Part shown: positions 1,029 to 32,361 of the stretch, one piece after another
Numbering within the stretch: position 1 is the first letter of the stretch
How the letters are laid out: each line of letters begins with the position of its first letter
DNA from: a virus
IMG/VR virus record: IMGVR_UViG_3300042526_000402
Location: 32,001-96,000 of that record
Length of the DNA stretch: 64,000 bases
Direction: 5' to 3' (one strand)
Program-made: the position numbers and the translations under genes
Notes under the pieces: generated by a model
The model's database searches: none
What the model saw: the letters and a program-made list of their open reading frames with translations, nothing else
Told to the model about the DNA's origin: nothing

Positions 1029-1035
1029 TAAAATA

Positions 1036-1146
1036 CTCTGTAATATCAGTTGTAATACCTGAATAATGGTCACATCAAAAGCATGTAGGTATATATCAAT
1101 ATTACATTGATTGAAGTATCATGCTATTACAACTGAGTGCAGAGGG
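1036..1146 (+). ncRNA. structured element E1
   Basis: CTCTGTA/TGCAGAG and 12-bp TCAGTTGTAATA(1046-1057)/TATTACAACTGA(1125-1136) stems, with inner stems AGCATG/CATGCT and ATCAAT/ATTGAT; shares a 16-mer with E2. Confidence 0.6.
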
Positions 1147-1156
1147 ATTATTAAAA

Positions 1157-1257
1157 GGTTAATAGCAGTCCTTAAATGCTAGATGCAGTGGATAAGCAGT
1201 TTAAACCACTAGGGATACCGTAAATCGGTCAAGGAAAGGTAGACTCCTTATAAGCTA
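1157..1257 (+). ncRNA. cloverleaf-like structured RNA T1
   Basis: Weak closing stem GGTTAAT/ATAAGCT enclosing four hairpins: AGCA/TGCT, AGTGG/CCACT, ACCG/CGGT and AAGGA/TCCTT. Confidence 0.4.
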
Positions 1258-1274
1258 CTTTAATAAAATGTACC

Positions 1275-1371
1275 ATTCTCACTTCCCAAGGGTGAGCAGT
1301 TGTAGTGAACATTGTGCAGTGCTTTTAGTAGCTAAGCTAAATCACTTCATTACAACTGAGTGCAAGGGAAT
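1275..1371 (+). ncRNA. structured element E2
   Basis: CTCAC/GTGAG hairpin, then 13-bp CAGTTGTAGTGAA(1297-1309)/TTCATTACAACTG(1346-1358), then AGTGCAAGGGAA. Confidence 0.6.
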
Positions 1372-1372
1372 T

Positions 1373-1463
1373 ACTCTTGTCCAAGCAGGATTAATATACT
1401 ACCTATCTGATCATAATATCAGACTATAGGATGTATATCAGGGATTGCAACCCTGCAAGAGTA
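1373..1463 (+). ncRNA. tRNA-like RNA T2
   Basis: 7-bp ACTCTTG/CAAGAGT stem directly stacked on a 5-bp/7-nt arm (CAGGG-ATTGCAA-CCCTG); long central arm; no canonical anticodon loop or CCA. Confidence 0.55.
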
Positions 1464-1483
1464 CTAATTAATAATCTAAATAA

Positions 1484-26446: not shown

Positions 26447-26457
26447 TTAATTAAATT

Positions 26458-26547
26458 GCTTATTTGGTGTAAGGAGGAATGAATACTCTACATGGTTTTA
26501 ACATGCTAACTTGTTAGTGGATAAGGGTTAGAATCCCTTAATAAGCA
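26458..26547 (+). ncRNA. non-canonical tRNA-like RNA with a UUU (Lys-type) loop
   Basis: Acceptor GCTTATT/AATAAGC, D-stem GTGT/ATAC, T-arm AAGGG-TTAGAAT-CCCTT, hairpins CATG-GTTTTAA-CATG and CTAAC-TT-GTTAG; no CCA. Confidence 0.65.
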
Positions 26548-26588
26548 ATTTTAACTTAACGGGGAGACAGCTTAACTGAATAAATCCT

Positions 26589-31982: not shown

Positions 31983-32361
31983 ATCAGTAAGAGAGTTCCA
32001 TGAAACTTTCAACCAGGAAAATGGTAAACAACCAAGACTTCTTACAGAAGAAGAATTCTCATTAAGATACAACTTAATGGATGAAGAGAATAAAGAATAC
32101 TTCATGGGTTGTGAGAACCAAGACCTTACAGAAATAGCAGATGCATTAGGTGATAAACTTTATATTCTATGTGGTACTATACTTAAACATGGTATGCAAG
32201 ATATAATAGAAAAAGTATTTGATGAAATCCATAGGAGCAATATGAGTAAAGTTGGTGATGATGGAAAAGCTATCATGAGAGAGGATGGAAAAATCTTAAA
32301 AGGACCCAATTATTTCAAACCTAACTTAAAACAATTTATTGAAAATGCTGACAACAAATAA
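31966..32361 (+). CDS. MazG/PRA-PH-like NTP pyrophosphohydrolase
   Basis: VREFH, EENKEY, DALGDKLY, EIHRSNMSK and REDGKILKGPNYFKP motifs. Confidence 0.88.
   Translation: MKKQIESVREFHETFNQENGKQPRLLTEEEFSLRYNLMDEENKEYFMGCENQDLTEIADALGDKLYILCGTILKHGMQDIIEKVFDEIHRSNMSKVGDDGKAIMREDGKILKGPNYFKPNLKQFIENADNK

Follow-up and report, generated by a model that had tools for sequence, protein, structure and literature searches.

The window analyzed here, a stretch of 64,000 nucleotides, covers positions 32001 to 96000 of the 135,860-bp virus record IMGVR_UViG_3300042526_000402 and has a GC content of ~30%. Close to its start lies a gap (positions 1029 to 1504) without a credible open reading frame (ORF), inside which only a 53-aa ORF (1268 to 1429, + strand) and a 27-aa ORF (1229 to 1312, - strand) can be read. 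The ORF list, with genes of 125 and 251 aa directly on either side, bears out the ORF-free gap described in a first-pass annotation of this DNA. That annotation had tiled the gap with four foldable units, two homologous elements (E1 and E2) and two tRNA-like units (T1 and T2), and had seen in the E elements ribozymes or processing signals that release the tRNA-like units. Our analysis identifies E2, by architecture and conserved bases, as a homologue of the twister ribozyme, type P1; E1 as a plain long hairpin that is no ribozyme; and T2 as a member of a second conserved, phage-restricted RNA family, which is tRNA-shaped and is not a tRNA (Table 1). The former T1 unit we read as a spacer. The names T1 and T2 also denote pseudoknots of twister ribozymes and are given below as such where these are meant; coordinates prefixed G000 refer to the whole record, and L-numbers denote fetched family loci.

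Positions 1030 to 1470 of the + strand fold better than shuffled sequences (z -3.76, 0/100 shuffles as good), the result for the - strand being less clear (z -2.40, 2/100 as good). ARAGORN called no tRNA in the same interval, and Rfam gave no match at gathering score in the whole window; for positions 950 to 1560, Rfam at E values up to 10 returned nothing but a chance snoRNA match, and neither a tRNA nor a twister. No match was found by blastn of positions 1000 to 1520 against 50,697 phage records.

E2 and its twister-type family

A 16-mer common to E1 and E2 occurs in at least 118 IMG/VR stretches, and among the matches listed the partner stem strand lies upstream in 101 of 123. We classified 106 distinct copies of E, two of which were re-assigned by eye. 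Type 1 copies, with a complete adjacent 5′ half like that of E2, account for 71; in a further 19 the loop motif is present and the 5′ strands of P2 and P4 lie farther away, one is cut by the end of its locus, and 15 are E1-like, without the L4 loop motif. In L101, a copy of the kind with distant 5′ strands whose 5′ half had seemed missing, the fold turned out to be unchanged, with 76 nt inserted within L4.

Read from its 5′ end, the type 1 consensus consists of P1, UAA, UGCA(C), C, a short linker, P4 with the loop UUCCCAAGG, a long P5 arm, A(G), UGCA, GAGGG, and P1′. The Rfam twister-P1 consensus (RF03160) runs P1, UAA, P2, GCC, an optional P3, P4 with the loop GUCCCAAGCC, UAAA, P2′, GAGGG, and P1′. 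The order is the same, as are, of the bases that Rfam capitalizes, those of the cut site, of L4, and 5′ of P1′: E and twister type P1 have in common P1, the UAA cut site, P2, P4 with UCCCAAG, GAGGG, and the pseudoknot T1, with P5 as an optional stem. According to a review of the class (PMC5408937), a twister needs P1, P2, and P4, while P0, P3, and P5 are optional, and two pseudoknots, T1 and T2, are formed; the A after the cut is described there as highly conserved and the U before it as less so.

Two alignments were made, A1 with 46 sequences and A2 with 77, the latter fitted to a covariance model. The proposed pairs hold in 94.2% (A1) and 94.8% (A2) of cells, compared to 28 to 50% for slid partners, and none of 500 shuffles reached any of five pairing measures. 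Covariation among the E homologues is found throughout the fold, with compensatory changes in A2 at 4/5 pairs of P1, 2/5 of P2, 5/5 of P4, 2/3 of pseudoknot T1, and 3/10 of P5. In the same alignment, P1 is paired in fixed register in 75.9% of cells, P2 in 100%, with changed pairs seen in independent copies, and P4 in 99.7%, the L4 bases being conserved in 69 to 76 of the 77 members. Pseudoknot T1, in which CCC of L4 pairs with the GGG after P2, occurs also as CCA:UGG and CAC:GUG variants and is paired in 98.2% of A2 cells. The two A residues that follow the predicted cut are invariant (77/77), and before it stands U in 73 members and C in 2, with A in E2 alone and a gap in one more member. Between P2′ and pseudoknot T1, the conserved GA has its G in 75/77. 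The U-G wobbles in P1, 28 of them at one pair, fit an RNA read from the + strand. E2 itself scores 84.4 bits with covariance model R1, in whose training set it was included, and its fold has a z of -2.85 against shuffles.

Matches to the Rfam twister-P1 model occur in the same RNA islands as E. One, at L053:855-923, lies ~100 nt upstream of an E copy and scores 48.5 bits (E = 6e-10), below the cutoff of 67.2; another, at L098:2781-2839, scores 52.1 bits. Both share with E the UAAUGCA and UGCAGAKGG blocks around P2. Rfam 15 misses the E family, a variant form within an established ribozyme class, whose long P5 insert and changed linker probably cost it the Rfam twister score. For an arrangement in which the first-pass annotation had recognized no named family, E2 has the architecture and conserved bases of twister, and so a named family exists. 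Reasoning from the hepatitis delta virus (HDV) fold, we rejected an HDV-like or theta identity for E, whose helix order is unlike the HDV nested double pseudoknot. Twister-sister was rejected as well: a covarying pseudoknot is present in E, and for twister-sister the review sees no sign of any pseudoknot (PMC5408937).

Covariance model R1, which derives from relatives of the E2 type, finds E1 with 40.2 bits (E = 3.6e-7), the 19 P4/L4 model positions being deleted. E1 shares with E2 a 25-nt direct repeat (88% identity) and the same inverted-repeat stem, so that the homology of the two elements seen in the first pass is borne out. There is no P4 hairpin, L4 loop, or pseudoknot T1 partner in E1; the 5′ strand of its outer helix pairs directly with the strand that makes P2′ and T1′ in twisters, and its fold has a z of -3.85 (0/200 shuffles as good). 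As ribozymes or processing signals, the role first proposed for both elements, E2 qualifies by homology, with two core deviations and a cleavage that is predicted only, while E1 is without the catalytic core. Since 15 of the 106 copies, including E1, are without L4, cleavage is not the sole function of the common module formed by P5 and the 3′ strand.

Unknotted relatives of E were observed in L012, L075, L076, L100, L109, L004, L047, and L093. Those of the first five loci have a full helix of 10 to 11 bp and a P4 hairpin with an ordinary loop. In the unknotted copies the 5′ strand pairs continuously with the P2′/T1′-forming strand, with covariation (e.g., in L100). The distal P5 inserts form sequence classes shared by copies with different 5′ halves (L025/L076, L027/L075, and E2/L101; further shared P5-arm pairs are L001/L009 and L018/L026), and a CAUGUAG-like word recurs within P5 arms, that of E1 included. 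The P5 arm looks as if it were an exchangeable, selected cargo.

The spacer between E1 and E2 gave a different picture from the tRNA-like unit that had been placed there. Its stretches 1157 to 1257 and 1147 to 1262 show no folding advantage over shuffles (z -0.64 and -0.09; 49 and 88 of 200 as good), and the minimum-energy fold is not a cloverleaf. No homologue was found by blastn in 118 loci, and a 21-mer of the spacer had 0 exact matches in IMG/VR.

T2, the T family, and its association with E

T2 folds better than all of its 200 shuffles (z -4.23). The first relatives of T were found in loci fetched for E. An exact 21-mer from the 3′ part of the T family occurs in 115 IMG/VR stretches, and a search of one genome each of 185,579 species gave a single hit, L226. 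The latter is a 3,540-bp contig of a Phycisphaerales metagenome bin and probably a phage contig binned with the bacterium.

The T core comprises an 8-bp closing stem, a 2- to 3-bp hairpin with the loop AAGCA or AAUUGCA, and, by the closing stem, a 5-bp hairpin with the loop RUUGCAA. The elements are 48 to 199 nt long, and the part between the hairpins varies, the middle arm being absent in L130 and L223; the middle arm of the "cloverleaf" is therefore optional. Compensatory pairs were found at 5/8 positions of the closing stem, which is 98.6% paired, and at 1/5 of hairpin 3 in alignment A4 (2/8 and 1/5 in A3). For the two loops a GCA:UGC pairing is proposed, whose counterpart is UGUA:UACA in L079 and AUA:UAU in L028, so that the pairing is kept; these two events were noted by inspection and carry no statistic. 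The genome of the window has a T paralogue as well (G000:30446-30650), ~18 nt behind one of the promoter-like CTAACCCTT boxes described below.

In outline T2 resembles a cloverleaf, with a closing stem coaxial with a 5-bp hairpin and two pairable loops. The arrangement of 8 bp plus 5 bp is present and conserved. The RUUGCAA loop is not a canonical T-loop (TΨC) word. T2 differs from a tRNA further in having no conserved anticodon arm or CCA, a hairpin 1 of only 2 to 3 bp with a 5-nt loop, and 0 to 1 linker bases after the closing stem. Neither ARAGORN nor Rfam called any scanned T a tRNA, the scan covering T2 and 13 loci (L018, L023, L025, L029, L032, L035, L048, L064, L069, L073, L081, L117, and L121). 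The shortest arm-bearing T, that of L032, is tRNA-sized, at 72 nt including 3 flanking nt on each side. Of the earlier description of T2 as tRNA-like, then, the shape has stood, with the 8-bp stem abutting a hairpin of 5 bp and 7 nt, and the tRNA identity has not.

The 100 loci selected by the T word, which include near-duplicates and are not independent counts, hold a same-strand E in 59 cases (model R1, E up to 0.001). The E start falls -4 to 400 nt after the 3′ end of T in 51/100 and abuts it in 7/100; in these 7 loci the predicted twister cut lies a few bases past the closing stem of T. In every locus examined, the elements run in the same direction as the genes. The order of the window, with T immediately behind E, recurs in L069 and L121, and in L114 a genuine tRNA-Gln begins at the 3′ edge of E, exactly in the place of T2 here. 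The RNA islands contain tRNAs as well as other ribozymes: a hammerhead-like match in L071 overlaps the 3′ end of E, and a pistol ribozyme at L083:1434-1498 (42.1 bits, above the cutoff of 34.5) lies 260 nt past E. A GOLLD-like match was also observed in L083 (641 to 1036; 84 bits, cutoff 150, E = 2.8e-20), ending 5 nt before E (1042 to 1172), and the same GOLLD-like 3′ words precede E in L063, L065, and L073.

Two documented systems bear comparison. Clusters of hammerhead ribozymes flank prophage genes and have been proposed, and found in vitro, to cut polycistronic RNA into gene-length pieces (Perreault et al. 2011; PMC3088659); small ribozymes lie between short phage genes there too, but of another class, and the window has one impaired-looking candidate together with non-ribozyme RNA modules. 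Theta ribozymes, which are minimal HDV-like ribozymes, adjoin tRNAs of gut phages and make their 3′ end (Kienbeck et al. 2024; PMC10879173); twister, hammerhead, and crAss go unmentioned in that paper. Like the E copies that abut T, they cut at their own 5′ edge directly after a tRNA-shaped RNA; E differs in having a twister fold and T instead of a tRNA as its partner, and the order in the window is reversed.

We found no description of the twister variant or of the T RNA in the literature, supplementary motif lists (the RAGATH sets and the 224-motif paper), which may hold either, being outside the scope of the search. The roles of small self-cleaving ribozymes in bacteria and phages are largely open, and E, linked through its position and strand with T as well as with other ribozymes and large RNAs of the same early-gene islands, offers concrete, testable substrate-ribozyme pairs. 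For annotation, such gaps are neither empty spacers nor tRNA genes. The value of the window itself is lower, with an E2 that looks impaired, a T1 that is not real, and a dead relative in E1; what most deserves following up is the T family with its tie to the ribozyme.

Several conserved sequences were observed around T. Of 86 distinct contexts, at least 11 (L023, L035, L145, L151, L158, L167, L178, L180, L185, L191, and L200) have directly upstream of T a ~55-nt hairpin (stem CCACAAG/CTTGTGG, conserved interior) followed by a U-run. In ~10 contexts, T is preceded by another recurrent small hairpin, with GCAUGA as its loop word. Downstream of T, a conserved module made of AAUAGAAAGG, a short hairpin, and GCAUGUAGA-like words is found in L018, L095, L121, L128, L171, L178, L183, and L207.

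Table 1. Features of the gap and of its borders (positions in the window)
Feature	Position	Strand	Basis or remark
Upstream ORF, 125 aa	651-1028	+	ORF list; no Pfam or PHROGs family
E1, long irregular hairpin, non-catalytic twister-family relative	1036-1144	+	Model hit, fold, repeats
E1 outer helix	1036-1042 with 1138-1144	+	Fold
E1 conserved P5-type stem	1047-1057 with 1125-1135	+	Fold; variable distal arm beyond
Spacer between E1 and E2 ("T1" of the first-pass annotation)	1146-1260	+	No supported structure, no homologue
E2, twister-type (type-P1, P5-extended) ribozyme homologue	1261-1373	+	A1/A2 alignments, covariance model, fold
E2 P1	1261-1264/1370-1373	+	Alignment
E2 predicted scissile bond	Between A1266 and A1267	+	Alignment; AA 1267-1268 intact
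E2 P2	1269-1273/1360-1364	+	Alignment
E2 P4	1278-1282/1292-1296	+	Alignment
E2 loop L4	1283-1291	+	Alignment
E2 pseudoknot T1	1285-1287/1366-1368	+	Alignment
E2 P5	1297-1309/1346-1358	+	Alignment
T2, T-family member	1372-1463	+	Fold, A3/A4 alignments
T2 closing stem (8 bp)	1372-1379/1456-1463	+	Fold
T2 hairpin 1, loop AAGCA	1380-1390	+	Fold
T2 variable arm, 6-nt loop	1393-1438	+	Fold
T2 hairpin 3 (5 bp, 7-nt loop AUUGCAA), abuts closing stem	1439-1455	+	Fold
T2 proposed loop-loop pairing	1385-1387 with 1446-1448	+	Loop covariation in relatives
Downstream ORF, 251 aa	1505-2260	+	No Pfam or PHROGs family; followed by terminator-like site 2262-2289

Proposed transcript processing and competing explanations

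On balance we think it somewhat probable that the gap is an RNA island of reusable modules known from many related phages, here a twister-type E2, a decayed E1, and a tRNA-shaped T2, which would split and stabilize messages. The only + strand terminator-like site in positions 1 to 2600 is the one that follows the downstream ORF. None lies between 1028 and 1505, and from the lack of such a site within the gap we infer one transcript for both ORFs and the gap. This + strand transcript would comprise the 125-aa ORF, the gap, and the 251-aa ORF. E2, if active, would cut it at the predicted scissile bond, at the ribozyme's own 5′ edge. The upstream product would carry the 125-aa ORF and close with the E1 hairpin, the spacer, and a 2′,3′-cyclic phosphate, the 3′ end of the spacer being set by the cleavage; the downstream product would be the message of the 251-aa ORF, starting with a 5′-OH and carrying the compact E2-T2 fold 40 nt before the start codon. 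T2 would stay fused to E2 unless another nuclease cuts. The release of tRNA-like units by the E elements, as originally envisaged, is not what this geometry predicts, since a twister cuts its own 5′ edge and E2 would not release T2. E1 would be a decayed or re-purposed relative in which the P5 arm and the 3′ strand are kept, a stable hairpin and no catalyst. Most likely, the modules are transcript-processing and stabilizing parts of an early operon.

Several findings weigh against this proposal. Among the 77 members, E2 alone has A, not U, before the predicted cut, and it alone has lost by deletion the G of the conserved GA that precedes GGG. Its cleavage may be weak or absent, and we would put self-cleavage of this copy at about an even chance. 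Compared to twister type P1, the family has a P5 insert of ~35 to 160 nt with a sequence-conserved base, no P3, and, in some copies, L4 insertions; the canonical UAAA linker is lost, replaced by P5 and one A. The columns of pseudoknot T2 (CC, GG) are available but invariant, the first C covarying with the G before P2′ instead, and a fifth P2 pair stands where pseudoknot T2 is expected, changing from C:G to U:A in 4 sequences. In Rfam, no model, those of twister among them, picks up E1, E2, or any E copy of the 32 scanned loci, whether at gathering score or at E values up to 10. About 1/7 of the copies (15/106) are coreless, as is E1, in a count that is non-independent, the loci having been chosen by exact element words and some being near-duplicates. 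The exact selecting word spans the 3′ strands of P5 and P2, so that invariance there is partly built in; the variation in E is supplied by additional copies of these loci in which the word is absent. The order in the window, E2 before T2, is the reverse of that in most loci, so E2 does not trim T2. Among the five IMG/VR loci with the closest relatives of the downstream ORF (65 to 76% identity), only L121 has an E-T unit upstream of the gene; L120 is without E and T, and L122 to L124 have a small ORF in place of the unit. With the unit in only one of five, the array is therefore dispensable, and it is an accessory, mosaic feature. Transcription and cleavage of the region are themselves predictions from sequence.

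Both copies of E may instead be past their life as ribozymes, leaving, with T2, only stable folds that would protect message ends, insulate translation, or provide small RNAs through the P5 arms. The uniqueness of E2 at two conserved core positions speaks for such an account, as do E1 and the other L4-less copies, in which the P5 stem and the full pairing of the 3′ strand persist, and the sharing of P5 insert classes across different 5′ halves, suggesting selection on the arm itself. Set against this, E2 keeps P1, P2, P4, L4, pseudoknot T1, and the invariant AA, the base before the cut is the less conserved one and makes hardly any contacts (PMC5408937), and a one-base register shift (UCC:GGA) could restore the spacing of pseudoknot T1 in E2. 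We regard a purely structural role as possible but rather unlikely, and no explanation offered here fully accounts for the P5 arm and 3′ strand being kept in copies incapable of cleaving.

That T2, and T1 with it, are tRNA mimics freed from a polycistronic RNA, serving as decoys for tRNA-targeting defenses or as substrates of RNase P or RNase Z, appears improbable. No T examined was called a tRNA by ARAGORN or the Rfam tRNA model, the 7-nt loop departs from the TΨC consensus, the "anticodon" arm is a variable insert, absent in the minimal 48-nt members, and there is no CCA. The T1 stretch has neither a fold nor relatives, and nothing ties the locus to a defense system. What keeps the idea alive is the resemblance of the 8-bp stem stacked on the 5-bp/7-nt hairpin to the 7 + 5 bp of acceptor and T-arm, with loops that pair like the elbow of D-loop and T-loop; the tRNA-Gln of L114 in T2's position at the 3′ edge of E; the tRNA size of the L032 element; and the documented occurrence of phage ribozymes beside tRNAs (PMC10879173). 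A DNA-level element, such as an origin, a packaging or recombination site, or a promoter array, or a chance symmetry in an AT-rich spacer, would agree with the fact that the conserved stems are also inverted repeats in DNA and with the promoter-like boxes that recur behind terminators in the DNA immediately preceding the window. This we consider very improbable: the compensatory changes maintain pairing, that of the pseudoknot included, which is meaningless in duplex DNA, the frequent U-G pairs would turn into A-C mismatches if the opposite strand were read, folding is better for the + strand than for the - strand, and the elements follow the orientation of the genes.

The reading of the gap as an RNA island of reusable modules could be extended into a bolder one, which we put forward tentatively and think unlikely as it stands: T would be a new class of phage RNA, a minimal elbow of at least 48 nt, made of the closing stem and two kissing hairpins, that is co-transcribed with a dedicated twister-type E and in many phages 3′-trimmed by it, and E would form a natural series from active ribozyme (type 1) through L4-insertion forms to fully unknotted hairpin (E1). 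If true, the T-E pair would be a ribozyme-matured effector RNA, e.g., a tRNA-elbow mimic engaging RNase P, the ribosome, or a host nuclease, and the E family a ribozyme scaffold re-used for a non-catalytic job of the P5 arm.

Flanking genes and other noncoding stretches

The two ORFs that flank the gap, described as candidate anti-host genes in the first pass, gave no family match in Pfam and PHROGs, nor did a 68-aa ORF at 394 to 600. The window also contains three ORFs of 2,631 to 3,466 aa on the strand opposite to the genes around the gap; a giant ORF gave no match by tblastn, and Terminase_6N was not found. For the DNA polymerase match, the top bit score among the 12 records listed belonged to Cellulophaga phage phi14:2, which we take to be crAss-like. 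The architecture and the ~30% GC content fit a crAss-like label for the phage, which we could not prove here. The sole tRNA called by ARAGORN in the window, a 92-nt tRNA(CTA) at 26457 to 26548 (+ strand), reads UAG and raises the question of stop-codon reassignment in late genes.

Two more noncoding stretches were observed close to the gap, and Rfam searches of G000:31500-33600 and G000:29500-32000 gave nothing credible and no GOLLD. The first stretch, ~500 nt after a promoter-like box and a terminator, is formed by positions 1 to 395 of the window and the ~120 nt before them (G000:31881-32395). It is ~70% identical in L108, L104, and L089 and recognizable in L120 to L124, with no Rfam match, and may be a long noncoding RNA or a leader. 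The second lies before the window, in the strand-switch region (G000:29600-32000, locus L125), and is GC rich and ~450 nt long; it is followed by repeated CTAACCCTT boxes, each behind a terminator-like hairpin with a pyrimidine run.

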